The notes under the pieces were generated by a model. It saw only the letters and a list, made by a program, of their open reading frames with translations, searched no databases and was not told the DNA's origin. DNA of 64,000 bases from Curvularia clavata (taxonomy: Eukaryota): the NCBI GenBank assembly GCA_023920165.1, contig CP089279.1, positions 434,001 to 498,000 of the forward strand, in the 5' to 3' direction. This document shows positions 39,132 through 63,724 of the stretch, piece by piece. Each line of letters starts with the position of its first letter. Within the stretch, counting starts at the first letter, position 1. Position numbers and translations under genes: made by a program.

Positions 39132-41365
39132 ATGCTTGTACCTCATCCTTTCGATCCTCTGTCTCCGTCCGAAATCTCCGAAGTAAGACAGATTGCTCAT
39201 CCCAAAGTTCTATGCTAACAGCAAACCGATAGGCGGCGAAAATCGTGCGCTCGCATTATGGGGAACAAGATGTGAATTTTAGAGTGATTACTCTGAAGGA
39301 GCCTCCAAAAACAGAAATGATAATCTTCCTCGATCATGAACACCGCAAGGTTCCCGCACAATGGAACACCATTCGTGTCGCCCGTGTCGAGGTTACTCTT
39401 ACGACAGCTGCAGGAGACAATGAGCTGCATGAAATTCATGTAGATCTTGTCAAGAAAGTTGTCCGTCAGCACCAGGTCATCAAGGGGAAACATTCTTACA
39501 TTGATTCTACGTATATGAAAGACGTTGAAAAGGCATGCATGGCAAATGAAAGGGTGCAAGATGAGATACGGAAGCTTGATTTGCCTCCCGCGGCGTCTGT
39601 CGTCGTTGAACCGTGGGCATATGCGACTGACGGCCAGAATGATATGTCGAAGCGTGTTACTATGGTACTATCGAACCTTACATTGTGAAAAATCATTCTT
39701 ACTAATGTTAACCTTAGTGTTGGTTCTACCTTCGTCTGTTGGATCACCAGGATGCGAACTACTATGCTTACCCTCTCGACATTTGCGCAGAGATTTCAGA
39801 GGATCTTGAGGTTACCAAAGTATATCGCCTCCCCTCCTCCCCAGATGAGCAAATTCACAGCGAACCCCGCCGGTTTGATCGTCGCAAAATACATTCAGCA
39901 GTCGCAAGTGAATATCATCCTGATTTACGACCAAGCCCCCGCAGTACTACCAAACCGTACCAAGTAGTCCAACCAGATGGACCATCGTTCGAGGTTCGCG
40001 GCAATCAGCTGAACTGGGAAAAGTGGTCATTCCGGGTGGGTTTCAACTATCGAGAGGGCTTGACCCTCCATGACATTCGTTATGATGGTCGTAGCCTCTT
40101 CTACCGTCTCTCTCTAGCCGAAATGTTTGTACCTTACGGCGACCCACGTGCACCCTATCCGAGGAAAGCGGCGTTTGACCTGGGTAACGATGGCGCTGGT
40201 ATCAATGCAAACAATTTGAAGCTTGGGTGCGATTGCCTCGGTAAGCCTCCAGCCTTGCCAATTTTCAATGAGGGCCAATCTAATCAAAGTTGTGAATACA
40301 GGTACGATCAAATACTTCGATGCATGGCACAACACGCGAGACGGAGAACCAATGAAGCTACCCAATGTAATTTGCTGCCACGAACAAGACGATGGGATTC
40401 TATGGAAGCATACAAACTTCCGTACCGGACATGCAGTGGTGGCCCGATCTCGGATTCTGGTGTTGCAAACTATTATTACGGTCAGCAACTACGAGTACAT
40501 TTTTGCCTTCCACTTTTGTCAAGACGCATCAATATTCTACGAGGTGCGTGCCACAGGCATTTTATCCACAGTGCCCCACAACTACGGAGAGCAGAAGAAG
40601 ATCACGTACGGAACCATTGTTGCGCCTGGAGTCCTTGCCCCGTATCACCAGCACCTATTTTGTCTTCGAATCGATCCTGCTATTGATGGCCAGAACAATT
40701 CAGTATTGATTGAGGAGTCCGTACCAATGGCACTGAACGAGAATAATCCTTTCGGGGTGGGCTATACGTCCAAGTCCCAGTTTATCGAAACGGAAGGTGG
40801 CTTCGATCTAGACTTTACGACAGCGCGAACATACAAGTTCGTCAACGAGGCAAAGATAAATCCTATCACAAATACACCTGTTGGCTTTAAGCTCATGCCA
40901 GTTTATAGCCAGATGCTTCTTGCAGATAAGAACTCTTTCCACGCAAAACGTTCAGAGTATGCGCAGCATGCCGTATGGATAACCAAATATCGAGACGACG
41001 AGCTGTATCCTTCAGGCAAATACACAATGCAGTCCATGGGCGGAGAAGGCATTGCTTCGGCGATCCAGAAACGAGCCACAGAGGGCAATCAGGATTGTGT
41101 TAGGAACAGTGACGTGGTTGTCTGGCACACGTTCGGTTCTACCCACAATCCACGTCTTGAAGACTGGCCGGTAATGCCTAATGAGAAAATGATAGTGGGA
41201 CTGAAACCTGTCAATTTCTTCCTTGGAAATCCGGGCCTGGACGTTGAACCCTCGACCCAAGAAAAGAATAAAAGTAGTCTGTATACAGAGGAGGATTTGA
41301 AGTCAGATTGCTGCACTTCGAGATTGTATGATGAAGGGCCAGAAACAGGACCTTCAGTACTGTAA
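39132..41365 (+). CDS. Copper (TPQ) amine oxidase, ~689 aa
   Basis: Introns 39183-39232, 39665-39717, 40241-40301. HPFDPLS start, AFDLG (catalytic Asp), TVSNYEY TPQ consensus, HQH and THNP Cu ligands, EDWPVMP. Confidence 0.93.
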
Positions 41366-42528: not shown

Positions 42529-44827
42529 ATGGTCACCAACAATCCAACGGAAGAGAATCAGTTATTAGAAACACACGTAAGAATTTGCGACTTTAACCAT
42601 GTTGCGTAACGAAGACAAACTGAGTTCACTCCTCTAGCATGGCAATGTTACCGAACAGAATCATATGCATCTCAAGCGCCACTACCCTGCTATTTGGCTA
42701 GTGATTATCTATCTGCCGCTTGTTACTTTGCCATGGATTGCAACAGTACTCCTTTCATATCGCCCGTTTTCCAGATCAACATATTACTATCCAAAAGGCT
42801 TCGATGCGACTGAGCACAAGCAGATGCAGAGATGGGTCACGACTATCTACGTACTAAACTCTATTGCTAGCACACTCGCACTACCAATTGTTTCGTTCGT
42901 GATCGCTCAAACAGCAGTCGTGTTTAGTCAGAAACGTCCATCAGAGCGCCAGTTGAGCGTGCGAGATATATTTGCCTTCGCAGACCGTGCATGGCTTGAT
43001 ATTAGTGTTTTGCTCAAGCTTATTCGGGCAAAGGGGCGTGGATCAAGAGCATTCAACGCCTTCACTGCTTTGGCTTCAGGCCTTCTTTTCATTAGTAAGT
43101 TTGTTGACCTTGTTTCATATGCAACAGCCTACCTTCAATCAGTTCTCTTAATGGATGCGTGAAAGATTTTAATGGTTCCAGGTGCCCTACAGCCTCCTTT
43201 GTATCAACTTTTGGTTGATTGGAAGAGCATCCAGGTACCGTCTGGAAAGGTAAAGATTGAGCAGATTTCTGCTGGTACATGGATCAATTACTACGACAGG
43301 GTGTCCTTGGGTAGGGATGCTGAGCCTGCTACAATGGAGATGATTCCTCACGCTACAGTTGTGGACAATGTCCAATTCGACCTACAATCGATCCAGGCGC
43401 GTGCTGCCCAACCTTACATGTGGATCGACTTCAACAGAACGGATCCCTCAAGAGTTGCGGCGGAAGATCTATCAATTCGACAAGGAGATGCACAAAACAA
43501 CTGGGCCAATATTCAATTGAACAGACTTCCAACTTTTTTCGCAGCGTATCCTTTCAATGTGACGACAGGGACTATGCGATATCACGCAATGCGCTTCAAC
43601 TCAACGGTCAGTTGCAATGCCGTATCTAGGGATTTGTTTCCTTCGATTTGCCCTGGGGAAAAACCTTACATCACTTCTTTTGAAGTGCGAAATGTGAACA
43701 CCTCGGTTGAAGTTCAGATTTGCGTGCCCGGAAAATGGGGATCCTCTCCATGGACGTTGAGTCGTAACAGACAAGATATTGGTGAAGAGGTATATATTCA
43801 GAGCTCGGTGGATAGAAACTCGTCCACTATTCACTGCTCTTCCGCGACGACGAGGGGCTACTTCGAACTTGGTAACTACAGAACCAATGGCGCGTACGGA
43901 CAACTATTGGAGTATTGGCCATCATCTGGTATTATAAAAGAACATTTCAACGATCTAGGAACGTACTGCTTGACCAATAGCACAGTCCAGTGTGAGCAGC
44001 GGACATACATTCCTTCAGAGCGGTAAGCTCCACGCCTCAAGGCCTAGGACGATAACTGATATCGAAATAGAGATCCATACATAAGCAACGCCATAGGATG
44101 GACTCCAGATGAGCCAGAGTATATGCGCTGGAATGCGTCGGGCCCTCTGGTAACATCTATCATGGCGCTCTTCGGGGAGAGCTCTTGGATTCGTACAGCT
44201 TCCAACCTCACCTCGACGATGGCTGACTCAACGACCGAATCCACACCCGTGCCAATTTGGTGGAACTCAATCTGCGAAAGTCAACCTCTGTACCGGGATA
44301 ACTTCAATCGCACTGATATCCACCAGTGCATATCTGGCCGAAGACCCCGCGAGGTAGTGGCGGACTGGCTCGATAAATACTTGAAGTCTAGTGACACGTT
44401 GGAAAGCCTTGTTGAGGAAGGCGTAATGCTTGCGAATAAGGCAGTCCTCACTGTACACAAGGATACTCGAGCACCACGTCAGCTTTGGAATGCAGGCGGA
44501 CGAGGTATCTCTTCCAGCTCCGGATATTCGGTCCTGAAGCCGAACGTATCGCTTGCCTCCATTGTCGTCATCTCGACGTTGCTTGTACTTCAAGTCGCTG
44601 GCCTTATGTTCTGCGTGATTCTTGTCGCGCGTACACCAACGTGGACAAGAGTATTCAATGCGATGGCCATTGCGAGAATTGGAGCTGGTCTGGAGAAAGA
44701 TACATTGCCGGCCGACGGGAAGTATGCAGAGGATGAAGACTATGAGAAGCTGAGAACGGTTAACGTACCACTTAGTATGATGTCTTCGAATGGGTTTAGA
44801 CAGCGCAGGATCTCTAAAGAACCATGA
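42529..44827 (+). CDS. Uncharacterised fungal multi-pass membrane protein with large Cys-containing luminal domain (~700 aa)
   Basis: Exons 42529-42576, 42638-43094, 43182-44022 and 44071-44827 join in frame. About 3 N-terminal TMs, several N-x-S/T sites, TRGYFELGN and GPLVTSIMALFG motifs, and a C-terminal TM. Confidence 0.72.
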
Positions 44828-45171: not shown

Positions 45172-47019
45172 GTACTAGGAGTGAAAATCCTCGGTTATGG
45201 CGTTGCCGCGGCTGTAGGCATTGACGGCCCCCTTCCTCTGTTTGTTTTCCTCGTCATTGTCAGTGTTTACATTAGGGTAAAAATAAATCCAAACAGCAAG
45301 ATACTGAACCTACCACGGGTAGAGGCCTGGGCCGTAAACGCCTACTTTCTGTTACACCCAATTTCGTAGGGGGACGCTATCATTCTTATCTGCAATATGG
45401 CACACACTATAGCGCAGTGGTGTTTGAGTGAAGCCGGTTTCGCTAAAGACTGTATCTTGTTGCGACTCGTTCTGCAAAGAGATGATGGTGTTTTGCTGAC
45501 TGGGACCAGCATCGACATAACACACCACCCTGATCTTGCCGGCTGACAAATATACGTTAACTAGTTAACTCACGATGAGTGATTATGTGAGAAATGTGAG
45601 ACCATCCTTTGCCTTTCGAACATGGCACTATCGCCAACTGGAAGTACCGACTAGAATGGCGAGGCTGCATAACATTGCGTGTTACAGCAGCTACAAGGCT
45701 AGTATGACTTTATTGCTCGAGTGTAAGGTTTTTCCAATTAGTGAGAATGTTCCTGACCCTGCCAATACTTCTAAAAGCCTTGTGGTGCTGCTCAATCGAA
45801 GCTGGATCGTTCTGGTCGTGATTGGCTCACTCTGCGTATTAGGCGTAATAGCGACTATGCGACAGTAATTTATTTGATATAACTGGATGTAAGTGCTCGT
45901 AGGAAGCTATAGTATATTATCTACAAAGGCTATAAAAGATTCCTATGTGTGGAAAGAGTAATACTCGCTCGAAGTCGAGGTACCTCGCTTGTTTTCCGTT
46001 GCAGGGGGGTTTCCTGGAGTAAGGGATGGATAGTAGTAAGTATTCAACGAATAAAAACCCCATACTCAATCTGATGTTGTACAAAGGAGATTTGAATGTC
46101 CATATACATAATTGTACCAAACTAACAGGACTCTTGCAACGGCTAACAGCACAATCCCTGCTCATAAATCACATGGTAGTCAATCAAACAACCTGGTGCG
46201 GAGTCCTAGAATCCGCGCCAACACCTTCCTCTACATCTACAGACCTCAAAAAGGTCCCATAGCTACGAAATAGCCAGTCTCGGCGTCTGTCCCGCGGAAA
46301 TGCATCAGTCGCTAACGGACGGCTGCGCTCATATCCAGCTAGCACGAGGGCAAGCAAGACTAGCAGCAGGATCACGACGAGGAGCATCGCGAGATAGATT
46401 CCGAAATTGCTTTAGAGAGCATGTCTAGAATTTTGGGAAGTTGGATGGGAAATGAGAGAGAAAGTGAGCATGTAAGTAGGGACGGGGGGAGCGATCGAAT
46501 AGAAATTAGAGTAGGAGGGGGTTGAGACATTGTGAAAGGTTACTGTATGTGATATGAACAGTGTTTTTGATTTCACGGTGATTAATTAAAGTGGAATGTA
46601 TGAGTATAAGACGCTTTGTTAAATGTTTTACAATAATCAGTAGACGGGGCGGAAATGAGATCGAGATTGCCTAGGATGAATGACCACCTTGTATCTTTCC
46701 TTTTTCATTCTGACGCTGGGATATGTAAGATTTTGAGAGCACCTTTCGCGCAAAAAAAGCCCTGTCCATGTTTTAGTTCTTGTGCTTAGGTAGTTACCGG
46801 CGTTTTTCTCAGAGTCAATTGTTTGGCTAGCAAGCATCTAATTAGAACCCGTCTGGGCATTCTTAGTGAACATAGCACTGGTCGCTGGGGATATGTCGCG
46901 GTTCAGTTTCCGATGCAATTATACTAAGTACCACAGTATTGGCTTTCTTAACGAGAAGCTCTCAGGGCCTAGGAGGTTTGCTTCATTTTACAGTGATGAG
47001 AGGATATCAATACCTGCTA

Positions 47020-48181
47020 TTACACAGGCAAAATACCTGGCGCAACCCAGTCCTCAGATTCGCAGTACTTTTTCAAGCTCATCGTCGGTACCTTGACACC
47101 CATCTGAGGTAAAATTTGTTAGCTGAGTGGCTCCAAGTGGTACAAAAAGGCTGTTCGTGCTCACCTTTTCTAGATCCCATGCCATCAGCGTGTCCTTCTG
47201 ACTCGCATTATACCCCCACTTACTCGAAAACTCAAACATCTCTCCAATCTCTTTGCCCGCGCCCCCAGGTATCTGTTTGTCGAAATCTTCGACGCTTACT
47301 TGCTTGTAGCTAGTCTTAACCCCATTTACCTCACCCCAGGTCTTGATCCAATCAGGCCATGTGCACCACTCACTCGCTGCCATGACCGTTGATTGCGGAG
47401 GTAGCTGCAGCATCGCACGCACAAACGACCCAACATCAGCTCGGGGATTGAGATGAGGTAGCACAACATCTGGGGCAGTCGGAGACTGCATTTGGACCGA
47501 TCCATCTGGAAGCTGCTGGAAATATTAGCAACACTACACTCTACACCTCCAGCAGCTCTATCCTGGGAAGAAATGAAATGGCCGAGAACAAACCTTTGCA
47601 AACCAGCGCTGTGGCATATACCTCCAACTAGTATAAAAATACCCCGTATGCAGATAACTCGTCTTCTTCGCTAATTCTGGATACTTCTCCGCCAAATATC
47701 CTGGAAAGACATCCGCTTTAGCATCGAAATGGTACAACTCCTTGTACCGCCCCTCACTGCTCTTCTCCGCCTGACACAGCGTACTTGCTACAAACCCAAC
47801 CTCATCCAGCCCATCGACCACACGAGCGACAGCATCAACGATGTTCTTACCCTGCTCGAGCTCTAGCTCGTACGCGTATCGTCGGATCGTTTTCCCCAGC
47901 TCTTTTGCACGCGCCTGGTTCGCAGGGTTGAAAAACGGAGTCCAGAAATCTGTTACGCTGAAGACGAGATTGGCATCTTTGAAGGCAGTAGCTAAGGATG
48001 AGGGGTCGTGTAAATCTGCCTGGACCATTTCTACGCCCCGGGCTGCAAGGGCTTGTGAGGCGGCGGATTGCGGGTCTCGTGTTAAGCCTCGAACGCGCCA
48101 TGCTGAATCGAGAAGGAATGTAGAGGCTACAGAGGAACCTTGGTTTCCTGTTATACCGATAATGACGATGAGTTTGGTCAT
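47020..48181 (-). CDS. NmrA-like (NMRAL1/HSCARG-type) NAD(P)-binding protein, 339 aa
   Basis: Introns 47513-47593 and 47104-47164. GITGNQG, VRGLTRDP, VFSVTDFW, HFDAKA motifs. Confidence 0.88.
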
Positions 48182-48606
48182 TTTTGGAGAGTTGAGGGCT
48201 CGGGAGTTTAATGTGGTTTTTTCTTATTTTTGGTGCTGGGGACGAAGATGAGGTTGGAAGGATGGGCTTAGCTGTGGGGAGACTCAGCCGAAAATTGAGT
48301 ACGTAGGTACCCCGCGCTGTCTCTTGGAGAATAAGGCGTACGCTTTATATACATGCGTTTGCAGCAGAGCTGTGAGTCATAGTCTAATCTTACATCTTCC
48401 GGTCAATCTTCATGTTGACTAGGGCGATGTTGTTGTGGAGACTCTCGTATGTGATGTTATCGAGGGTGGCCTGATTCGCAACTTTTAGGTACCAGGCCGG
48501 CTAACAACCTTTCCTTTGCAGCACTCTCAAATACAGAAGGTTGCTATCGTTGACTATTGATTAGATATACCTATTGCTACTCGATCAATAAGGCACCCGC
48601 AGGGTA

Positions 48607-50442
48607 TCATCTTCCATTGACCCCAGTAGCGCCGTTCAGTCCATTCACTTTGTCTCTCCCAGGCACAGGTACCATACTTCCCAGTCGACCCTCCTCCTCT
48701 ATTTTCTTCTGCCACGGAAGCATATCTCTGGCTGGTTCGGCCGGACCAACCTCACCTCCATACTTCCTTTTCTCAGCCCACTCGTCAAGATCCTTCTGTT
48801 CGACAAAATTCCCATGCAAGCCCAATCGGAGTTTTACAGGAAGATGAACGATTGCAAGCGGGCCCTGAGCGAGATTCTGCGCATCAAATATCAGAATATC
48901 GTTGCGTAGAACGTCGAGATGATTCAAAAGCGCCATGATATATCCCTCTCCTTCCTTGAAGTCCGCTGAAGAAGACTCTTTAGGCACAAAGACAGGTTCT
49001 TGAAAAGTGCATGTCGGGCCAGCCCAATACACGTCTTGTCTACCCGTATCCCATTCAAAGTGGCCGAGCACGTTGAATAGCCCCCCGGCAGGTGGGCCGC
49101 ACTTTGCGATGTCGTAGGGTTTACCTCGATCAATGTTACATTGCCAGAAGTGATTGTACTTCTTTGTCAGCACCCTGTCGTCAATGCGGGAAAATTCTCC
49201 ATTATTCCCAAAGAGCTTATGTGGCTGAACTCGCGTGTTAGCGGGCGAATGCGGATCAAATGCCCAACGATAGGTATCGGAGACGAGCTTGTTGGGCCGG
49301 AGAAGAGTGCTCGGAGCGTCCGTCTCGGTGTCTGGAGGGAAAAAGTAGAAGACGTTATCCGAGGCTACGGTTAAGTCGACCACTATCTTCCCATCCGAGT
49401 CTTCATAGGAGCCAGCTACGTGGCCATGAAAGCCTGGCATTGTTAGGGCATACATCTAAGTTTCAACAAATATCTTACCATTGTCCGCGCGTAGCCACAC
49501 TATGTCTTCCGGCTTTCCATTCCGACGTGGTACGATACCATACCACTGATCTTCGTTTGGATCCCAAGCAAAGTGATTGCCACCTTTTTTAAGTCTCTCC
49601 GTGTTGACTTTGAGCGGAGTCAAGGGTAAGATCAGATAATTCTTCGTGATCGCGCAGTCATGAATCATCCCGCAAAACGGCGCTTTATACCAGCACTCCT
49701 CAGTCTTCTTTCCTTCTTTCGAAATCGTGTACACGACAATGTCGCAGCTAGCGTCATGTCCGTCACCTCCAGCTTCGTAGCCGTAGCAAACCATTTCTCC
49801 GGTGTCTGGGTCAAACTTGGGATGCGCAGTAAAAGTCGGTGATTGAACTTGGCCGTCAAAATCGTAGCGGCCAATGGTTTCGAGTGTGATTGGATCCATG
49901 GCGAACGGTGGGCCATCTTCCTTCATTGCGAGAAGAACACCTCGCCAGAAGATGATATTGGTGTTTGATGCAGTCCTTATGATGCCTCTTACCATCTCAT
50001 TGTCGGTATAAGGGTTTCTATACCGACCGAGCAACGCACGGCGTGCTTTTGTCTCCGCTTTGAAGCGATCAGTGTGTACATATCGCTGTCGAAAGTCGAC
50101 ATGGCCGTTCTCAAATCGGAAGGCTGAGACTGATCCGTCTCCATTAAAGTGTGTGTCCTCTTCGAATAGTGGCGGAAAGCGATGGTCTGGCTGTATGCGA
50201 AAGAAAGTGCCATTGATATCTTTCGGAATCTATGGCGGCTAAGGTTGAAGCTCTGTAGTTAAATATAATGCCCGACTTACTGTGCCGGTAGTCTCCAGCT
50301 CAAGGATATCTGCCTCAAGACGTGATGGCTTGTTGAAGCCGTTGAAGAACCCACTATCTGGGAATTTGACTTCATCACCACACTTCTTGCCTGCTTGATA
50401 AGCGGCAGGTGCCGGAAAGGCAAGGGAAAAGATGTGTGCCAT
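48607..50442 (-). CDS. Stilbene-cleaving (lignostilbene/resveratrol-type) dioxygenase, carotenoid oxygenase family, 579 aa
   Basis: Introns 50230-50280 and 49434-49478. FNGDG, four Fe-ligand His (TAHPK, MIHD, HGHV, LHG), [13 protein letters not shown] and MKEDG carry the Tyr/Lys pair typical of 4-hydroxystilbene-cleaving enzymes such as NOV1, LSD and CAO-1. Confidence 0.9.
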
Positions 50443-50567
50443 GGTATGCCCCCACTCTCTCCAATCTTGGTAACTGCCAGTACTTCTTCTATGGATTCTT
50501 GGATGCTGATTTTTGAAGTAAGCAGCCAATTCTTGAGTGATAACTAACAAACTATGAATTGCCGTGC

Positions 50568-50610
50568 CTGGGGTTGGTAGGAATGGATGTGGGGTGCTTC
50601 ACTTGCGGGG
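50568..50610. promoter_or_regulatory. Three clustered CreA/Cre1-type SYGGRG sites upstream of the dioxygenase
   Basis: CTGGGG 50568-50573, GTGGGG 50589-50594, GCGGGG 50605-50610. Confidence 0.45.
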
Positions 50611-50642
50611 TAACTCCCGGATGCCCATGGGTCCATGTAGGT

Positions 50643-50658
50643 CGGAGTGATGGAACCG
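50643..50658. promoter_or_regulatory. Candidate Zn2Cys6 site CGG-N10-CCG (dioxygenase promoter)
   Basis: CGG AGTGATGGAA CCG, ~200 bp upstream of the ATG. Confidence 0.45.
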
Positions 50659-51346
50659 CGTAGCATCGACGGCGGCTTCACTTCTGCGATCAGATGATCA
50701 TATTAGCCGGGCATGGCGCTGCATCGTTTCCTAATTGCCGCGTCACCGTATGTAGATAGTATGGATATTCCCAAAACCTTACACTAGATGCTGAACTTGC
50801 ATGGTCCAGAGTTAATCAGCTAGAAACCCACGACTTGTGATATGTAAATTGACACGATATTTCACCTACCATATAATACCTCAACCCTCCCTTCATAATT
50901 GAATAGTATTCGGGACTGAAATTATCGGGCCAATCACTTGCCCCACATATTTGTATTCAGTCAAAAATCACCAAACGTTTTGCGGTATTGTGATTCCTGA
51001 TTAACAATATCAAAAAGTTAGAGTCTTGATATTTCACATCTACACATTTAAATTACGTCGCTCGCCAGAGGAATGTAGGGTTGTTACTTAGATAATGTGT
51101 TGAGAAGGTAGCAAATATGCTTTCGGGTGCTTACTCTTTCTAAAAGAAGGTATTCAGACTCGGTAGTAACTCTCTAGAGCATCAAATCTCTTCAGTCCAG
51201 TAGAACATGAGAATGTCGACCCAAATAGTATAGCCATGTCTATAAGGCGATACAATCGATGCTATCTCCCACAAAAGAAACATTCGTGACTAAACTCGTT
51301 AAACTAACGGAGACATGGCCATAAACACACTGTTTTGCAGTCGCGT

Positions 51347-52240
51347 CTATGGCGTACCATTCGTCTCCGATTGAGGCTTACTCAACACCAATGGAGGTGG
51401 GCTTGTCGACGGATCTTGTCCAAAGTGGGGCGCTCTCAAATCATCGTCAGCGACCTGCTCGCCTGTGACAGGATGCTTGTAGTGGAATGGCACTACGCGA
51501 GTATCCGGCCAAAGCATCGGATGCTCACACAAGGCATCTGGACCGTAAGGATCTTCTGGGAATGTCTTTGAGAGAAATGGGATGTAATTAGGCTTGGTGT
51601 GTGCCCATCCTTTCTCGAACGTCGCATGCCAGAAGGGAAAGTATTTCAGTCGGAAGATCTTCCAAACGCCATCTTGTTTGATGTACTCGTTCTCGTATAT
51701 TCCACCTTCCCACCACTGTACTAGACCGCGAGGGTGCGTATCTTTGATGCTGTCGTGAGTACCAGCAGACATCATGCTGCGGAATCGGCCCTTTGCTCGA
51801 GTACCTTCGGCATCCACGTCAACTATGCCCTGCATTTGAGGATGATCGAGCAGAAAACCGTAGACGGGCCCGTTTCGCCCAGCTACGAATGATTTGGCAA
51901 ATCGTTCAACATAAAGGCGCTTGACGCCCTCTTTCCCATTGTAGCGTCCTCCAAGAAATTCGACGCAGGTATCAGGGTGGTCGGCGTAGAGATCGGCAAC
52001 CTATTGTGATAAGCCACTGAATTTTCTTCGCATTGCAGGCCCACCTACCTCTTTATAGAGGCACTTGTCAAGATAATAGCCATATGTGTATTGAAGTTTA
52101 CGAATGTCTTCTTGGTCTAGTTGTGGGATCAGCATCTTCTAAGCGTGAGTAGTGATTGGCGCAGCCCCACCACTCAGCCGCACTACCTGTGACTGCAGCT
52201 TCTCTACCATAGCCCTCAATTGCTCGATTTCGCTAGCCAT
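51347..52240 (-). CDS. NTF2-like/SnoaL_4 (LinA/BaiE/LdpA-like) enzyme, 263 aa; candidate gamma-formaldehyde lyase
   Basis: Exons 52171-52240, 52049-52116 and 51347-52000. LSDQEDIRKLQYTYGYYLDKCLYKEVADLY...LLDHPQMQGIVDVD...AKGRFRS...WWEGGIYENEYIKQDGVWKI. Confidence 0.8.
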
Positions 52241-52468
52241 GCTGTCACGAGTAGTTTTCAGAAATTCTTGGTTTATAGATTGGTCCTTCTCCATGTCAAG
52301 GCAGCTCATCACTTTTTAACTTCATTGATCCGGCACGAACCTAGCCACAATCCTACGAAGCTATTACCCCATTCTGTGGATAGTCGGGTATGGGGTAGCC
52401 TCCGTGCCGAATCCGCGAATAAAATAAGCTACGGAAACGGTGGTATAGTTGTGATGTGCTGAGAATAC

Positions 52469-52484
52469 CGGCTAGATACTACCG
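52469..52484. promoter_or_regulatory. Candidate Zn2Cys6 site CGG-N10-CCG in the divergent SnoaL/ALDH promoter
   Basis: CGG CTAGATACTA CCG, near the middle of the 496-bp intergenic region. Confidence 0.45.
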
Positions 52485-52736
52485 ATGGAACTATCCACAA
52501 CGGCCATGTGGAGCACAGCGGCAAGGAACGTCTTGTGGTGGGGTCATCCACCCACAAGACTCCCGCATTGCGCAGTAGCGTTTTTCCAAGAACCGCCACA
52601 ACCCTTGATCCTATAATATCTATTGAAGGAATATCTGAAATTGGTGTATTGCATTACAGCCCACATTCTGCCATCGAAGCCCAATCAACGCTTGTTCTGC
52701 ACAGAAGAGCGACATTATTGAACTCCGGACTTCAAC

Positions 52737-54525
52737 ATGGGTTTACCCGACAAGATCGAGACGCGCCTTTTCATCAACGGAGAGGTCGGTCTTCGGAAAA
52801 CACGAGCGCTGGATGCTCACGCTGACTACTGCGCAGTTTGTTGAGTCGTCGAATGGCAAGACGTTCGATATTGTCAATCCGTCGACATTGAAGCTTGTTG
52901 CTAAAGGTTACTCCTGTTGGATCCCTTAGGAAGACAACCCATTCTGACATTAGCACAGTTCACGAGGCATCTGAGCAAGACACGGACAATGCGGTAGCAG
53001 CCGCGAAAGCGGCGTTTCCTGCATGGTCCCAGCTATCTCCAGATCAAAGAGGCCAGTATTTCAAGAAGCTGGCAAAGCTTATCCGAGAGAACAATGATGA
53101 ACTAGCCGCACTGGAGGCGAGCTCGATGGGCCGCCCGGTGGGACAGTTCTTCGATGCACATATGGCCGCCGCAAAATGGGAGCGCTATGCGGAATGCGGA
53201 TACAATGTGCAAGGTGAGAGCCCTAGCATGCTATAGAATTACTGTACTGACTCTAGGCAGGCACCACCAGCGTACAGACTCCGGGTTTCGTTAACATGAC
53301 CATACGCCAACCATATGGCGTAGTTGCCGGGATCATTCCGTGGAACGTACCCCTGTTCTTCCTGTCGAGCAAACTTGCTCCAGCGCTGATTGTTGGAAAC
53401 ACCGTCGTTCTCAAAAGCTCTGAGAAGGCACCCTTGACTGTAGGTAAAGGATTCATTTCTGGTTTCAGAAGCTGATTGTGATAGTCTGCAAAAATCGCTT
53501 CTTTGGTACAACAAGCTGGATTCCCACCCGGTGTTATCAACATCATCACTGGCTTTGGAAATGTAAGTGGCTCAGTGCTGAGCCATCACATGGATGTTCG
53601 CGCTTTGTCATTCACTGGATCTAGCCGCACTGGAAGAATTATCCAAGAAGCTGCGGCCAAGTCCAATCTCAAGCAAGTTTACCTTGAGCTGGGTGGAAAG
53701 TCACCGGCAGTCATTTTTGAAGATGCCGACCTGGAGAAAGCAGTAAAGGAGACGGCGCACAGCATTCAGTGGAACAGCGGCCAGGTCTGCATGGCCAACT
53801 CGCGTATTTACGTCCAAAACACAGTGGCCGACAAGTACATTGAGCTGTTCAAGCAGTACTTTGAGAGTGAAGTCAAGATGGGAGATCCATTGGCCGCGCC
53901 ACAAGATGGGGTGAATCACGGTCCCCAAGCAGATGGGGCACAACACAAGACGGTCCTCGCGTACTTGGAGTCTGGAAAGCAGTCCGGCGGAGAACTGATT
54001 ACTGGTGGCGGCGCGCCTCCGGGCCGCGAGGGCTACTTCATCCAGCCCACCATTTTCAAAAACACGCCCGAAGATGCCAAGATTATGAAAGAAGAGATTT
54101 TTGGCCCAGTGGTCAACATCAACGTCTTCAATTCGGAGGATGAGGCTCTTGCAAAAGCCAACGCGTCTGAGTGCGTTTCACCCGCCCTTGATAAGACGAC
54201 ATGAGACAGGCTGACTAATTTCTTACAACTCAGGTTTGGACTGTATGCCTCGGTATACACCAAGAACATTGACCGGGCGCTGCGCTTCGCCAAGGGGCTA
54301 GAGGCTGGAACCGTCGGCGTCAATTGCACCTCACCAGGTAAGGGCTCGATCTGTTTCTTGTTGTTTTCCTAAATCAACGAGACGGTAGCTGATGTAAAGG
54401 CAGTGACGGCCACCGACATGCCATTTGGCGGATACAAGTCATCTGGGTCGGGTCGTGAAGGAGAGCCTTTGTACTCACTCGACAACTTTCTTGAGACAAA
54501 GACGGTGTTGATGAAGATAGGGTGA
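52737..54525 (+). CDS. NAD(P)+-dependent aldehyde dehydrogenase, 487 aa
   Basis: Introns 52785-52836, 52907-52958, 53214-53260, 53440-53484, 54171-54233, 54338-54403. [24 protein letters not shown] (Glu), NSGQVC (Cys), [16 protein letters not shown]. Confidence 0.93.
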
Positions 54526-54893
54526 TGGGACGGCAGTGGCAGGACGGCAGTGGTGGTGTAGCTGCAAGGCAGGATGAGATGATATGTTCGTGGGGGGGAG
54601 AGGGGGGGGAGGCGCTAAGCTGTTCTGGGCCGAGGATTTGATTAGCCGATCGGCAAGCCCTGCAAGGTGGCTTTGCGTGAGCGCACACCCAACGAACCAC
54701 GTCCCCAGCAGATCCCCCATCCCCCATCCCCCACTAGAAATGGAGTCCCTTCCCTTCTGTCCTCTCCACTGCTGCAACGGGCGCCATGCTCCGTGATCTC
54801 ATTCAGGACTGCTGCAAGTGTGCCGGATGAGCTGCATTGCGTCGATACTAGTGTCATCTGATTTGGCCGGGCTATCGCGGCCCTCGGATCGAT

Positions 54894-57329
54894 ATGGCCG
54901 AGTTCTCTGCCGCCCCGCCCCAGCCTCAGCTGCCTCGAGCACCCAACAGCAGAGCTCCCAACGCCCATCGCGTGCACAGCAGCTGTGATCGCTGCCGGAG
55001 TAGGAAAACCAAAGTACGTACGCTGATTTTTCTGCCGGCTTTCCGTCTGTCCGTCCATCTGCGTCCTAATCCTAGTGCCAAGCAACTAACCATGACTTGA
55101 CATAGTGCATCGATCCCAGTACGACTCTTACTCTCCTCCCTCTTCTTAATGACGACGACTCGATCATCTGCTGCTGACACGCTTGCCTAGTTCCCGGGCC
55201 ATGTCGTTATTGTGCCCGCACAGGCGCCGTTTGCACCATTGCCACGCCCAGGAGGAAGCGGCCCTACTACCATGTGACCGAAGAGGAGTATCAATGTGCC
55301 ATGCGCATCCTCGAGCACTTCTTCCCTGGCCGTGAACTCAATCTTCAATCTCTTCGTACCATTGCCAAAGCCATCAAAGATGGCACCTTCCAAGCTGAGC
55401 CCATTTTGCACACCGAAGCTCTCTTTGCCACCACCCATGCCTCGCCCGAAGACGGAGACAGTGTCGACAATGGCGAGGAGCAAGATGTCCAAGAGCTGCA
55501 TGAGCCACTCGGCTGTATGATGAAAGACTCGCTTGGCAAGTTTCGCTATGTCGGAGCCCATAGTGAGATACCCTTTAATGCTGCTGTGGCCACCTTGGGC
55601 ATGCAAAGAAAGGACCCTTCCATCATTCCCACACCAAAAGTGGGGGCGTATCCACCTACGCTTCCTGTCGCATCCCCCTCTACTGACTCGGGCGCTGAAG
55701 AAAGTTACTACCTCCCCAGCCGTCAACTGTGTGACATTTATATTTCTCGCTTCCTCGAAGATGTCCATTGTACCTACTGGCTTTACCCAGTCGAAGCATT
55801 GCTACACCGAGTGGACAACACGTACTCAGAATCAGCGCCGTCTTCATCCAGCTCTTGGATGTGCTCTTTATATACCATCTTCGCTATCGGAGCAGCCAAC
55901 TATGCAGGAGCCAATGGCAACTCCCCGCCGCCAGACTGGCCGGCAGCTTTGGATACAAAAACATCAGAGGACTACCTTGCACTTGCAAAACAGCTCATCC
56001 CCACAGTGTACGATGAAGCCGACATAGACAGTATACGCGCAATGGCCATCATGGTAATGTCATGTCGTGCGCCGTGTGGCGTGTAATCTAGCTGACAATC
56101 GTGCAGTCTCTCGCAATGGAGAACCTTTGCTCTAGAGTTAGCGCCTACTTGTACATGGGCGCTAGTGTACAAATGGCCTTCTCGCTAGGTCTGCACCGTG
56201 ACCAAGTCGCCGAGTCAGCTACCGCACTTGATCGCGAAGAGCAACGCAGGATCTGGTGGACTCTCTTTCAGCTCGACCAAGAGATCTCCTCACGAGGTGG
56301 TAGCCCAACTGTCATAGATGAGCGTTTCACCAAGGTTACTACGCCTATGCCATCTGAGCAGGTACGATGTCCACCTTCGTCTTGAATTTCCATACACTGA
56401 CGCATTTCGAGGTTGTCTATCCGGGTCTGCACACACCTCTTTCGTGGATGGCCACATCAGTGTCACTGTGTCGCCTCAAGCGCGAGATCATTCAAGCAGT
56501 CTACATGGAACGCGCATCAAACTCTATTTCTTTCTCGACAGTCTCCAATTCACTCCTTTTGTTACAGAAATGGCATCGTCAAATGCCGGCACATCTGAAA
56601 TTTGATGTACCTGCACCGCCAACATACAGGCGCGCAATCGCCGTGCTGCACCTACAACACTGGAGCACTGTCATTCTCTTGACTCGGCCCTTTCTTCTCT
56701 ATCTGGTCATCAGATATGGCGCACTCGCGTCAAGCAAAAAAATATGGTTTGAGCGTATGGGAAAGACGTGCATAGACGCCGCACAGAAAAGTGTTACCAT
56801 TTTGACACAGATGAGCAGTACCGGCACACTCTCCAGTTTGACTGCTTTCGACAGTACATGCATTTTGCGACTAATCATAATCTTCATTCTAGCCTACTCT
56901 CATACCAGACTGTCGCAGTACAGTGAGCAAATATGGAGCTTGATGAAGCTCATCAATGGCATGGAACAGATTGGCTTCACCAAGATGGTGTCGCAGGAAA
57001 CTCCTTTGCGCCTAGCCGAGTTGGGTGTACCAGAGCACCCTCAAGACAACGTTGGTGATAACCACGCGCCTATTCACTTGGACGATGCCACAATTGCCCA
57101 GCTGTGGGGCAACTGGGACCCGTGAGTTTGTACGCTGCAGATCCATGTTCATAACTAACACTTGGCCAGCAATTTCATGACTCCGTTACAGACGCAGCAA
57201 AGTCTGGATCTTACCTTTGATGACTCGGGCGCTTTCGACATCAACACTGAAATTCTCGCATTTACCAACCTGGATGATTCTATCGCAATTGATCCTTCGC
57301 ATGCCTACCCGCAGTACGGGGTACAATAA
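54894..57329 (+). CDS. Zn(II)2Cys6 transcription factor with fungal middle-homology (Fungal_trans) domain, 706 aa
   Basis: Exons 54894-55013, 55106-55118, 55191-56053, 56107-56361, 56412-57121 and 57170-57329. CDRCRSRKTKCIDPIPGPCRYCARTGAVC; AFSLGLHR...RRIWWTLFQLD. Confidence 0.9.
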
Positions 57330-58319
57330 CGCTTTTTCCCCACCCATTGAGTGTTTGCGACGAGATACGACGTTGATTTTCATGGCCACGGACAATGCCA
57401 GAGACACGTCGTGGACGGAGATGAAGACAGATTGGCCTGCACTGGACTATGCAACGCATCCGTGAGAACATCTATGGTTTCTATTTTGACACATGACTGT
57501 ACGCCAAAACATCATCTTCCAGCGTCTTAGACCGCTTCTGGTCCAGAGAGTTGGAACTCAAACACTGCAGAATCGGAAAAGGGGCAGCATTAAGAGGGCT
57601 GGCCCATATACACATGGAGCCAACTCGAGCAAAGCTACATGTGGTCCACACTGGGATGAACTCTATATTACAGATTCAGTCAAATTGTGATTAGCCACGA
57701 CAGGATACTATGACAGTGGACGACGGGAGCGTGGATGGACGCAATTGCCAGCTTGGGAAATTGAATCCAACAAGCGGCTTGTGAACACAAACATCTACAT
57801 AAGTAGAACTTTTCGATATTGGCAACATAACTTATCTCCTAAATAACATCTTCAATTTAACTTTCGATTTCATCTTCCAACTTTGTATCGGTGACTAGGA
57901 TTGAAGGGGATTGGAACATGGAAGAATTTTACGTGAATACAACTTGTGTGGGCAGTCAGGAAGTCAAATAGTTGCGCAATGAGAAGAATATCGTTATTGA
58001 AAAAAACAGCAACGGTATGTTCTGGCCAACCAAAGCAACCTGGATTTGAAGACGTTGCGTGACACATGCAGTAGTTTGGGGCAAAGCTAGCTCTTCTTGG
58101 ACACGAATTTCGAGGGCATCTCCTCTCTGACAAGAAGAGACGTAAAAAAACAGTAGTCTTGCACTTGATAACATTCTTAGAACTCCTTCTAAACGCCATA
58201 GCAATGCTCTGGAATTATCCTAACAACAGCATACCAAGAGCACCTCCTGTAAACGCCTATTTAATCCCTGATTCCTACCGAATCCGAAGCTCTTTGTCAA
58301 ATGCTTTCTTGCCGCCCTC

Positions 58320-60990: not shown

Positions 60991-62244
60991 TTAAGCAAGA
61001 GGAGGGTTAGCGTTCTTGAGAAGCATCTCAAAGTAAGCCTGGAACCAGGTTCCAGCCTCAGGAGCAGGCTTGAAGGCGCTGTTACGGCCGCAGTGAGCAT
61101 CGTAGCGAGCAGCAGAGGTGTCGGAGGTGCCGTCAGACTGCGAATGAGTTAGCGATTGTAAACATAATGTTCGTTTCATGAAAATAGCACTTACCTCGCC
61201 ACCGGGCTTGACCCAGACAATAGCATCAATGAGGCTGTTACCAGTGTTTGTGGTCGGCCTGGTACCGAAACCAGCACCCGAGACGTTGCACCAGTCGCCC
61301 CACTCCTGCTGAGCTGTAGGTACCTTGCCAGAGCGTCCTTGGTCAACGATGAAGTGAGCTGGGAAACCTTCGGCCTTGAGGAGAGGGGCGAAAGCGTTGA
61401 TGTAACGCTCCTCGTCACAGTTCTTGTTTCCTTGGGTGATGGAAGGGCAAGTGGAGACACGTAAGGCGTTGTAGTTGCTGACGTTGGTGACGATACCACG
61501 GACAGCGCGGGGAGAGCCAGCAGCCTTGTAAACTTCGGCAAAGAGCTTTGCGGCAGGGCCGATGTTGGCGTCCCATCCCAACCAACCAGCGTGGCCACCG
61601 TCGAGGTACATGTCGACGTTGTTGAAGTTAAGCGTCTTGAGGGCGTAGGCGGTGAGTTCCTTGTAGTAGGGAGCAGCACGCGAGCACTTCTGTACGCCCA
61701 TGTTTGTGACCATGTTGGCAAGGGAGTCTGGCTCAATGGCCAAGTTGATCTTGACATCGGGGTACTTCTTGATGATAGCCGCAATCTTATCGATGTACTG
61801 AGTCTTGTACTTCTCGACACCACCTTCGTCGATCTTCAGCTCACCGTTGGATGCCAGAGCAGCGCAGTCACGGTCGGGCAGATCGTACACAACGAAAGTT
61901 CCCATGAGGTTTGCGCCCGCGGCATTCTTGGCCTTGATGTCGGCAAGGTAAGTGTCCATGAGAGGTACTTTGGCCATGGTGTCCATCCAGACGAATGAGC
62001 CAACCTTAGCCACTGCAGTAGCAGCAGGCTTCAGCGAGGCCGCAAGCGAGGGCATGGCCAGGGTGTGGACCTCAGACGAATAGTAAGGGTTCGCATAGAA
62101 GTTCTTGCCTGCGAAAGGATTGCCAGAGGCGACAGCAGTCGTTGCGGGAGCAGAGCTGGTGGCCGTCGGCCTGCCCGTGGCTTGCGGTAGAGCCTGAGCC
62201 ATGCCGGCTGCGAGCACAGCGGTAAGGAGAACGTTGGAAACCAT
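60991..62244 (-). CDS. GH6 cellobiohydrolase II without CBM1, 398 aa
   Basis: In-frame intron 61138-61194. GNPF, ANPYYSSEV, VYDLPDRDCAALASNGE, IEPDSLAN, DGGHAGWLGW, WGDWCN, KPGGESDGTS. Confidence 0.95.
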   Translation of the reverse strand: MVSNVLLTAVLAAGMAQALPQATGRPTATSSAPATTAVASGNPFAGKNFYANPYYSSEVHTLAMPSLAASLKPAATAVAKVGSFVWMDTMAKVPLMDTYLADIKAKNAAGANLMGTFVVYDLPDRDCAALASNGELKIDEGGVEKYKTQYIDKIAAIIKKYPDVKINLAIEPDSLANMVTNMGVQKCSRAAPYYKELTAYALKTLNFNNVDMYLDGGHAGWLGWDANIGPAAKLFAEVYKAAGSPRAVRGIVTNVSNYNALRVSTCPSITQGNKNCDEERYINAFAPLLKAEGFPAHFIVDQGRSGKVPTAQQEWGDWCNVSGAGFGTRPTTNTGNSLIDAIVWVKPGGEVSAIFMKRTLCLQSLTHSQSDGTSDTSAARYDAHCGRNSAFKPAPEAGTWFQAYFEMLLKNANPPLA

Positions 62245-63724
62245 CGTTTAGGACCAAGAAAGAATGTGATGAAGTGCGTGAAGAAGGTAAACTGGGAAGT
62301 CTTCAAGCCATATTTGTATGCTGGCTGTCAGCCCTTGCTGGCGGCTATGTAGACTTCATCAATATCCAAATTACTTCGGCCGGTGACAACGTCCGCAATG
62401 CCGTAGTCAAAGGAGTTTACCGCGCTTTGGCAGAGTGACACTCGTCCACATGACTGAGCAAAAACGGTACCTGCGCCCCCGCAACTTCTCGAAACATGCA
62501 CCGAAGACGCCACCTCATGATTGGGGAAGTCCCCGCATTTGATGAAGGCACGTTGCTAGGAGTGTACCTTTGACGGACACTAGGCTGTGTACTCCGGCCG
62601 CCGAGAGAAAAGCCCTTGGTTTCATAAGTAGACTATTCCTGAAGGGAACTTGGCCGGTGGATGATATTGGGGGTGGGTCTTGGGAGTTGTCTTGACTGTC
62701 CTTGGCCGAACGCAGCACTGGGTGCAGACGGATGACGAGAAGCCCCAAGACTCAGGTGGTTTTAAGTTCATCTACAGTTGTTGTGATAGGTGCTCCTGGC
62801 AGTCTGCCGAGCAACCAGATGGTACTTGGCGCGGTTGATTCGTGCCGCAGCCTCGCATCGGCTGTTAGGGGTAGTGACGGCAGAGTCTCGGCTCCTTCGA
62901 ATTGTTAGCGCGCCTTGGACTACCCACCAGATACTCTTAACACAACCTCGTCTCTTCAGAGATATTCTTCGTACCATTCTCAGTTTCTTTGCCTCTGATG
63001 GGCCAAGGTGTTGTCAAAACTAGGCGCTGCAAGCGAGTTCCCATAACCAGGTTGCGTAGATGAAGTGATAGTGCTCGACTGGGCTGCTCCCCGGTTCGGG
63101 TGCGGCGGATTAATCTATTGTACTGCGGCATGTATATTGCTGGCGCTCTACTACCGAACCAAATGACGTTTTCCGCACTGTCGATACCGGGGTCTCGTCG
63201 AACCCCAAAGGAGAACGGACTCTAGTTCGTCGCACAGCCAGTATCTGGCCTTGTCATGTACATTGTGGGAGGTACAACGAACAAAGTGGTGCGACAGGTA
63301 GGTCACGACGCTAGCCAACGGCGTTCACGACTGCATCTAGATGCCCGCCTGGACTCGGCGAACTTGGTCAGTGTTTGCAGATCTTGGTGTTAGCTGTGCG
63401 GGAAATCACAGAGCTTTTCGCTCAGATCAGACTACGAGCTCTGTTCCTCACCACCTATCTTGCTCCAAAAAAGACCGTATACTGAAATGGCAAGACACAG
63501 AAAGAAAAATAGTTTGCATATGTAATCAGAGCCCTTGTTATAAACTTATGCACGAAAGACATGCAGAAGCTATCTTCAACTCTTAATTGCACCCGGTCCG
63601 TTACCGGCATCGTAGCCTGTCTTCCCGTCACCCCCGCGCCGCGCTTCTTCCCCTTTCCAGCCTCCTTCTCGGCCAATATCAAAACTCTAACTGTCTATTG
63701 TACAACGATCCACATGACCCTTGA

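Follow-up and report, generated by a model that had tools for sequence, protein, structure and literature searches.

The 64-kb window analysed here (the whole stretch of 64,000 nucleotides from positions 434,001 to 498,000 of contig CP089279.1, Curvularia clavata) contains a conserved unit of four genes coding for a SnoaL_4/NTF2-like protein, a stilbene-cleaving dioxygenase, an aldehyde dehydrogenase (ALDH) and a Zn2Cys6 transcription factor. We consider it probable, with some reserve, that a Pleosporales-type fungus here keeps a catabolic regulon under Zn2Cys6 control which resembles the sphingomonad route from lyase to dioxygenase to dehydrogenase for carbon-linked (C-linked) lignin and neolignan dimers. 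Homology, linkage and regulation lend the core of this interpretation good support, and the chemistry is what we infer from the characterised relatives of the encoded proteins.

Clear homology joins the SnoaL protein to the gamma-formaldehyde lyases LdpA and PcfL; its catalytic residues are all in place, its pocket carries the PcfL-type signature, and it may be predicted to share their activity. Its large exon (exon 3) matched only four solved sequences in the PDB, with 8ABT, 8ABU and 8ABV at 9.4e-48 to 2e-46; the 8ABT match covers query residues 4-183 and the C-terminal region aligns to LdpA residue 230. According to the accessible text of PMC9942872, these three entries are structures of LdpA, a cofactor-less lyase that converts erythro-1,2-diguaiacylpropane-1,3-diol (erythro-DGPD) to lignostilbene and formaldehyde. 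The residues named there are the His97-Asp40 acid-base dyad (motif I, NaLdpA numbering), whose mutants are inactive, Glu143, the Tyr35/Tyr147 oxyanion hole, Tyr74 and His183; a Glu143-Tyr165-Gln170 triad (motif II), which contacts the C-alpha hydroxyl, is termed exclusive to LdpA. Members of this lyase family are expected to be homotrimers held together by a C-terminal arm. PcfL, described as the only other characterised member, opens a beta-5 phenylcoumaran acid to give a stilbene and formaldehyde and is 44% identical to LdpA (PMC11323797, accessible text). As far as these texts go, the family received its names after 2018, LdpA (formerly LsdE) in 2023 and PcfL in 2024.

Relatives of the SnoaL protein were drawn from 80 metagenome loci, 80 loci of named bacterial genomes and the paralogues of the genus Novosphingobium, where 61 of 201 sampled genomes had a match, usually two per genome. 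Close relatives served as stand-ins for the PcfL and LdpA proteins of N. aromaticivorans, which lie outside the sampled genomes. The weaker of the two Novosphingobium classes is LdpA, several of its members differing from the 8ABT alignment at a few positions when compared by eye. The stronger (class 1) can be assigned to the PcfL orthogroup since, within one genome, a class 1 protein and the LdpA orthologue share 45.1% identity, in line with the published value of 44%, and since the class 1 layout (SnoaL-ALDH-x-Amidohydro_2, then the dioxygenase on the other strand) is that of the published locus Saro_0796/0797/0799/0802. An alignment of 102 hand-picked rows was then used, made up of 71 bacterial sequences, 28 fungal proteins out of 120 listed, the SnoaL parts of two fused models and the protein of the window; high-scoring segment pairs with stop codons and those of fungal metagenome loci with introns were excluded.

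Throughout this alignment the catalytic residues hardly vary. His97, Glu143, Tyr147 and Tyr165 are present in 31/31 fungal rows, Tyr35 and Asp40 in 30/31 and Tyr74 in 29/31, and the window protein has every one of them. Two positions separate the sides of the family. Position 170 is Gln in all 27 LdpA-side rows and His in 14/14 sphingomonad PcfL-type, 28/30 other PcfL-side bacterial and 31/31 fungal rows; position 183 is His in 27/27 LdpA-side rows, in 0/44 PcfL-side bacterial rows and in 0/31 fungal ones. With His at 170 and Asn at 183, the window protein thus departs from LdpA in motif II and at His183, and keeps Tyr165. The tree, a quick IQ-TREE run with the Shimodaira-Hasegawa-like approximate likelihood ratio test (SH-aLRT) as its only support measure, unrooted and drawn at the midpoint, places the 31 fungal rows in one clade (SH-aLRT 98) within the non-LdpA half (97). 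Identity of the window protein reaches 52.7-58.7% with PcfL-type proteins and, over the full length, 44.1% with an LdpA orthologue; the closest match to it, 91% identical, comes from Exserohilum turcicum. Because the residues agree with the tree, we place the protein in the lyase family with a PcfL-type signature, and by the two diagnostic positions and the tree the fungal enzyme would fall on the side of PcfL (beta-5) and not on that of LdpA (beta-1). The first-pass annotation of this DNA had proposed a lyase of either the beta-1 or the beta-5 type; its family assignment stands, and the evidence now leans towards the second. None of the NCBIfam families matches the fungal SnoaL protein or a bacterial PcfL-type protein. 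Since the fungi form a single clade among bacterial ones in an unrooted tree, the SnoaL gene may plausibly have come from bacteria. The wider collection also holds many bacterial proteins (P0126-P0240) of 640-700 aa with several SnoaL domains each, and others of about 1000 aa in which an esterase/lipase domain is fused to SnoaL domains; these are 30-41% identical to the window protein.

The dioxygenase is of the stilbene-cleaving type, as had been proposed from the sequence at the outset, and its substrate is presumably a stilbene. For both of its large exons the best PDB match was 9LP3 (4e-129 and 4.5e-103), a 585-residue chain deposited as 'Lignostilbene dioxygenase', with an alignment running end to end and including the C-terminal extension; Neurospora CAO1 and the bacterial LSD/NOV enzymes came next, and the best NCBIfam model was lignostilbene-alpha,beta-dioxygenase. 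A search in which subscription journals were largely out of reach found no paper on structure 9LP3. The His residues of TFTAHPKF and GMIHD align with CAO1, those of FHGH and LHGN with 9LP3 and LsdA; the CAO1 residues concerned would be the iron ligands His197 and His248, with positions counted by hand. The contacts to the 4'-OH group are likewise kept, RYRN and MKED aligning with Tyr133 and Lys164 of CAO1; the Tyr of YRN and the Lys of KE are given as the 4'-OH recognition motif in the accessible text of bioRxiv 10.1101/343673.

Linkage was assessed by tblastn of the window genes against the collected loci, 33 of which were judged fungal by their split exons and a SnoaL identity of 59-91%. Partners were counted in those fungal loci that span 6 kb or more, 21 in number and several of them near-duplicates: 16 have the dioxygenase, 15 the ALDH, 12 the regulator and 13 an Amidohydro_2 gene beside SnoaL, compared with three for a major facilitator superfamily transporter, two for a zinc-dependent alcohol dehydrogenase and none for the NmrA-like gene that adjoins the unit in the window. 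Close relatives keep the gene order of the window, and four distant loci (L019, L022, L026 and L028) have the same genes in other orders; gene content kept despite reordering is what selection for linkage predicts. In five Sordariales models (P0121-P0125, 832-883 aa) SnoaL_4 and RPE65 domains are found in one protein. These are probably merged neighbours, since one model reads through the start methionine of the dioxygenase, and a real lyase-dioxygenase fusion is also possible; merged or fused, they show the two genes side by side in a second fungal class. Of the 79 loci from named bacteria, 47 have the dioxygenase, 58 the ALDH, 43 both and 55 Amidohydro_2. With these families linked in other fungi and in bacteria as well, chance does not account for the adjacency. 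The first-pass annotation had held that a lack of conserved linkage in other fungi would speak against its proposal; linkage was found, and it extends to the ALDH and the Zn2Cys6 regulator.

Two observations were made on the collected loci themselves. Bacterial loci such as L035, L038, L087, L092 and L124 are operons of Steroidobacteraceae type in which a PcfL-side and an LdpA-side lyase paralogue stand in tandem, directly followed by the dioxygenase and the ALDH; such a tandem pair may allow one operon to handle both dimer classes. Locus L081, on a contig titled as a Deltaproteobacteria metagenome-assembled genome, shows the same SnoaL match statistics as the metagenome loci L017 and L018 (67% over query residues 1-210), one of which sits on a 1.14-Mb contig. 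Its SnoaL sequence is 62-67% identical to the fungal protein, has an intron-like interruption and is adjoined by Amidohydro_2; the contig seems to be of eukaryotic origin and to have been placed in a bacterial genome bin.

A further argument comes from the promoters. An exact k-mer search of eight divergent promoters returned ACCCCAC only (7/8), and it was the alignment of eight orthologous SnoaL-ALDH promoters that exposed a CGG-N10-CCG site. In 11/11 promoters it lies between −229 and −267 relative to the SnoaL ATG, and in 10/10 dioxygenase promoters a similar site is found 202-251 bp upstream of the ATG. A central AT is common to all sites, giving a 16-bp palindrome CGG-N4-AT-N4-CCG that has three matches in the 64-kb window (at 50643, 52469 and 54885), all in the cluster, with 0.58 expected; three of 100 shuffles of the window reached that number. 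In distant fungi, too, the palindrome is found in the corresponding promoters. The less constrained CGG-N10-CCG occurs eight times in the whole window versus 18.3 ± 4.4 in block shuffles, and four of the eight are in the cluster. After removal of 10 near-duplicate loci, 23 fungal loci with 208,782 bases remained, in which 40 of 43 palindrome matches lie within 900 bp upstream of cluster genes, a zone that makes up 15.2% of the bases (binomial p 1.3e-29), where some of the promoters counted had also served to derive the palindrome and the distant loci and dioxygenase promoters had not been used for the initial site. At the start of the regulator gene the palindrome straddles the ATG, an arrangement also seen in L003, L005 and L008; coding constraint could explain part of the conservation of CGGATCGATATGGCCG. 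The divergent promoter contains other conserved blocks, GACCCCAC, whose core CCCCAC is found in 8/8 aligned promoters, and ATTCGCGGA-like sequences.

A common palindromic promoter element argues for co-regulation, and the footprints argue for the palindromes as candidate operators of the adjacent regulator, in agreement with the earlier suggestion that the cluster has a regulator of its own. The protein shows the features of the Zn2Cys6 (Gal4-type) class: a six-Cys cluster, C-X2-C-X6-C-X7-C-X2-C-X6-C, a fungal_trans domain, and CGG-palindrome footprints. The cysteine cluster is visible only when a 13-nt micro-exon (55106-55118) is included, which lies between AG and GT inside the zinc-cluster DNA-binding domain and without which the frame breaks. 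Its 13 letters are found between the flanking exons in three RNA sequencing runs and are exact in the window.

The gene models (Table 1) were obtained from stop-to-stop open reading frames (ORFs) and Pfam searches of the exon translations, and contigs of four public runs (X1, X5, X9 and X11) were aligned to 46500-58000. Pfam matches were NmrA (6.6e-27), RPE65 (1.5e-82 and 2.3e-43), SnoaL_4 (PF13577; 6.4e-14), Aldedh (1.2e-76 and others) and Fungal_trans (PF04082; 3.1e-12). Contigs of 4/4 runs pass over short GT..AG intervals, and introns are removed in all five genes, the NmrA-like one included; the contigs thus derive from RNA, and all five genes are transcribed and spliced. All five frames are open from ATG to stop after intron removal. 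Where the joint has several possible placements, intron borders are given to within 1-3 nt. In the root metatranscriptome X11, 15 of 17 aligned contigs are at least 99% identical to the window. Spliced contigs of the SnoaL gene were found in X1, X5, X9 and X11, and those of the NmrA-like gene in X1, X5 and X9; the gap over the latter in X11 is a hole in cover and carries no weight as evidence. Contig depth in X1 and X5 varies from gene to gene, a measure by which genes cannot be ranked. The outer limits of the five adjacent intact genes and of the divergent SnoaL/ALDH promoter proved to be exactly those first proposed. One 3140-nt contig of X1 (51041-54550) spans both the SnoaL gene on the minus strand and the ALDH gene on the plus strand with the introns of both removed; either the 5' ends of the divergent transcripts overlap or touch, or the two were merged in assembly.

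Table 1. Coordinates of the genes and candidate regulatory elements in the window
Feature	Position	Strand	Details
NmrA-like gene	47020-48181	-	339 aa; introns about 47104-47164, 47513-47593
Stilbene-cleaving oxygenase (SCO/LSD type, RPE65 family)	48607-50442	-	579 aa; introns about 49433-49477, 50230-50280
Palindrome CGGAGTGATGGAACCG	50643-50658		201-216 bp upstream of dioxygenase ATG; candidate Zn2Cys6 operator
SnoaL_4/NTF2-like gene, candidate gamma-formaldehyde lyase	51347-52240	-	263 aa; introns about 51999-52046, 52117-52170
Divergent SnoaL/ALDH promoter	52241-52736		496 bp; palindrome CGGCTAGATACTACCG at 52469-52484; conserved blocks GACCCCAC, ATTCGCGGA
Aldehyde dehydrogenase (ALDH)	52737-54525	+	487 aa; six introns
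Palindrome CGGATCGATATGGCCG	54885-54900		straddles regulator ATG (54894)
Zn2Cys6 transcription factor	54894-57329	+	706 aa; five introns; 13-nt micro-exon 55106-55118

The rest of the window holds housekeeping genes, for example those for tuberin, Cse1, a gamma-tubulin complex protein and Mid1. Three consecutive ORF pieces (174, 287 and 255 aa) without a Pfam match lie at 42638-44824 on the plus strand, with a copper amine oxidase gene upstream (39718-41362, plus strand) and a GH6 cellulase gene downstream (60994-62247, minus strand); none of these is linked to the cluster in any of the other loci.

The NmrA-like gene is adjacent to the conserved unit and expressed, yet it is not a member of it. 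By tblastn it is linked in 0/33 related fungal loci, and no palindrome was found upstream of it, so that the five-gene cluster of the first-pass annotation, which had named this gene as its least certain part, shrinks to four. Its nearest solved proteins are generic NmrA-like/HSCARG ones, with no phenylcoumaran or pinoresinol reductase among the PDB matches. For the ALDH, the nearest solved proteins are eukaryotic class 1/2 enzymes and a maize ALDH, and the gene was probably recruited within fungi, not transferred together with that of the lyase. A remnant of an Amidohydro_2 gene (31% over 116 aa) lies at 2081-2425 of locus L012, between SnoaL and dioxygenase, and suggests that the decarboxylase decayed recently in the lineage that includes the window.

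We propose the following model for the pathway. Judging from homology, the SnoaL_4/NTF2 enzyme would take a 4-hydroxyphenyl dimer with a gamma-hydroxymethyl group, which by the residue signature is more likely a phenylcoumaran (beta-5) acid of the dehydrodiconiferyl type than a beta-1 diarylpropanediol. If the mechanism proposed for LdpA applies, a quinone-methide intermediate would form and formaldehyde would be expelled to leave a 4-hydroxystilbene, with Tyr35 and Tyr147 providing the oxyanion hole, Glu143 the acid and the His97-Asp40 dyad the base. The second enzyme, a 4-His Fe(II) oxygenase by its family, would then cut the central double bond of this presumed substrate to give two aromatic aldehydes, which the third, by its family an ALDH, would convert to acids. 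A fourth step may be available to relatives only, in which a decarboxylase of the LigW/2,3-dihydroxybenzoate decarboxylase (DHBD) type, an amidohydrolase whose gene is missing from the window, is encoded next to SnoaL. As the footprints suggest, the regulator would bind three palindromes, one in the SnoaL/ALDH promoter, one in that of the dioxygenase and one at the start of its own gene.

The synteny of the cluster is not new in itself. The first-pass annotation knew of no described fungal cluster of this kind; one was in print in 2018, however, as the 'model 1' SCO cluster of Gluck-Thaler, Vijayakumar and Slot (bioRxiv 10.1101/343673). In the accessible text of that paper, model 1 consists of sco, an ALDH gene, a SnoaL gene (PF13577) 'with unknown function' and dhbd, 2,3-dihydroxybenzoate-decarboxylase-like and sharing PF04909 with LigW2; 80 full and 52 partial clusters were counted in 120 Pezizomycotina genomes, all in ascomycetes, and the cluster was read as serving the degradation of stilbene cleavage products. 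The window holds three of the four model genes (sco, ALDH and SnoaL) and appears to be the same synteny unit, but it is without dhbd and has a regulator, whereas the accessible text lists no transcription factor in model 1. What appears to be new, as far as the papers searched go, is a place for the 'unknown' gene among the PcfL/LdpA lyases, the parallel of four families with the beta-5 route, and a dedicated regulator with a candidate operator.

The closest bacterial counterpart is the beta-5 route of Novosphingobium aromaticivorans, given in the accessible text of PMC11323797 as PcfL (Saro_0796), the ALDH FerD (0797), LigW (0799) and LsdD/NOV1 (0802). It shares with the fungal loci the linkage of lyase, lignostilbene dioxygenase and ALDH, the PcfL-type residues at positions 170 and 183 and, in fungal relatives only, the Amidohydro_2 decarboxylase. 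In contrast, the fungal genes have introns, a eukaryotic host and a Zn2Cys6 regulator with its CGG palindrome, their ALDH and decarboxylase are not orthologous (28-40% identity), the window is without the decarboxylase, and the fungal side is known from sequence. The beta-1 route from LdpA (LsdE) to LsdA (PMC9942872, accessible text; PDB 8ABT-8ABW) has in common the fold, the His-Asp dyad, the Glu acid, the Tyr oxyanion hole and the pairing with a stilbene dioxygenase, but differs in that the fungal proteins have His170 for Gln, the window protein has Asn183 for His, and the tree has the fungal clade in the half without LdpA. CAO-1 of Neurospora, Rco1 of Ustilago and 9LP3 agree with the window dioxygenase in family, 4-His iron site and Tyr/Lys contacts to the 4'-OH; those enzymes were studied alone on free stilbenes, whereas here the dioxygenase gene lies beside that of a candidate stilbene-forming lyase. 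Wherever a paper found speaks of PcfL, of LsdE in this sense or of gamma-formaldehyde lyase, its title and abstract point to bacteria, and a literature search from which subscription journals were largely absent found none linking LdpA/PcfL-type lyases to fungi. A 2026 minireview states, in its accessible text, that no specific fungal pathways for lignin model dimers, comparable to the bacterial ones, have been reported and suggests that oligomers are degraded mainly by bacteria (PMC12997858).

Several points weigh against a dimer route. The lyase activity of all fungal members would follow from homology, and a substrate call from two positions is weak since LdpA and PcfL alone are characterised; the fungal clade is sister to the sphingomonad PcfL clade at an SH-aLRT of 80 only. 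The fungal ALDH is 28-40% identical to those of the bacterial loci and not orthologous to them, and the fungal amidohydrolase is 28-38% identical to its bacterial counterparts. Because these two have diverged, the parallel to the bacterial route is one at the level of families; a transfer of the whole cluster from bacteria is likewise disfavoured, the ALDH being eukaryotic-looking and both proteins only 28-40% identical to bacterial ones. A LigW-like Amidohydro_2 decarboxylase is absent from the 64-kb window (best tblastn E 0.029) and also from its closest relatives (L001-L009). Loci L017, L018 and L081, which belong to one organism, have SnoaL and Amidohydro_2 only, with no dioxygenase, ALDH or regulator seen within 8-10 kb. 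The central AT of the palindrome was added after the sites had been seen. Finally, free stilbenes, resveratrol among them, were the substrates on which Chaetomium CgRco1, encoded in a partial model 1 cluster, was characterised (10.1101/343673, accessible text), so that compounds of this kind may be the real input.

This last point is at the heart of the 2018 reading, a cluster directed at stilbene phytoalexins. The dioxygenase would take free plant stilbenes (resveratrol, pterostilbene, piceatannol), the ALDH and the decarboxylase would process the monophenolic products, and the SnoaL protein would carry out some other step, for example of a quinone-methide or isomerase type, on these products or on a modified stilbenoid. 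We regard this as unlikely but deserving serious consideration. Characterised fungal SCOs, one of them from a partial model 1 cluster, do cleave 4'-OH stilbenes as far as the accessible text of 10.1101/343673 shows; the residues that recognise this group are kept in the window enzyme, and the decarboxylase expected for a beta-5 route is missing from the window. However, this reading leaves unexplained why the most constant fungal neighbour of the dioxygenase has the complete LdpA catalytic set, and why the same pairing exists in bacteria, where the lyase has been shown to make the substrate of the dioxygenase.

The chemistry could also be of the proposed family with another substrate, such as a beta-1 diarylpropanediol, a lignan or a host-specific neolignan, if the PcfL-type signature is not predictive. 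The beta-1 route, which yields two vanillin-type aldehydes and needs an ALDH only, would be complete with the genes present, and the PcfL side of the tree holds many uncharacterised bacterial clades. Set against this, the LdpA-exclusive Gln170 is replaced by His in every fungal row and His183 is found in none, and the identities quoted above favour PcfL-type proteins over LdpA (52.7-58.7% versus 44.1%), which makes such a substrate a rather poor prospect. That the genes are neighbours by chance or through shared chromatin, with no common pathway, can hardly be maintained. The NmrA-like gene shows that unrelated genes do adjoin the unit, but the linkage outlasts rearrangement in distant fungi, fused SnoaL_4-RPE65 models occur in another fungal class, the promoters have a palindrome in common and the same triad is linked in bacteria; both the linkage and the motif counts contradict mere coincidence.

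A regulated route for C-linked dimers, if confirmed, would give a function to the unknown SnoaL gene of the 2018 model 1 cluster. It would also offer eukaryotic enzymes for lignin valorisation, the material for a test being three enzymes, one regulator and a 16-bp candidate operator. In its wider form, our proposal is that many Pezizomycotina, among them pathogens, endophytes and saprotrophs, carry an intracellular and regulated pathway for C-C dimers, in which a cofactor-less lyase, probably of bacterial descent, supplies the stilbene for whose cleavage the 'resveratrol' oxygenases evolved, and which would be the first fungal pathway of dimer assimilation; for this generalisation we see the case as evenly balanced. 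If it is true, the physiological role of the fungal stilbene oxygenases would have to be re-read, and if the fungal SnoaL enzymes are lyases, ascomycetes would consume C-linked dimers themselves.

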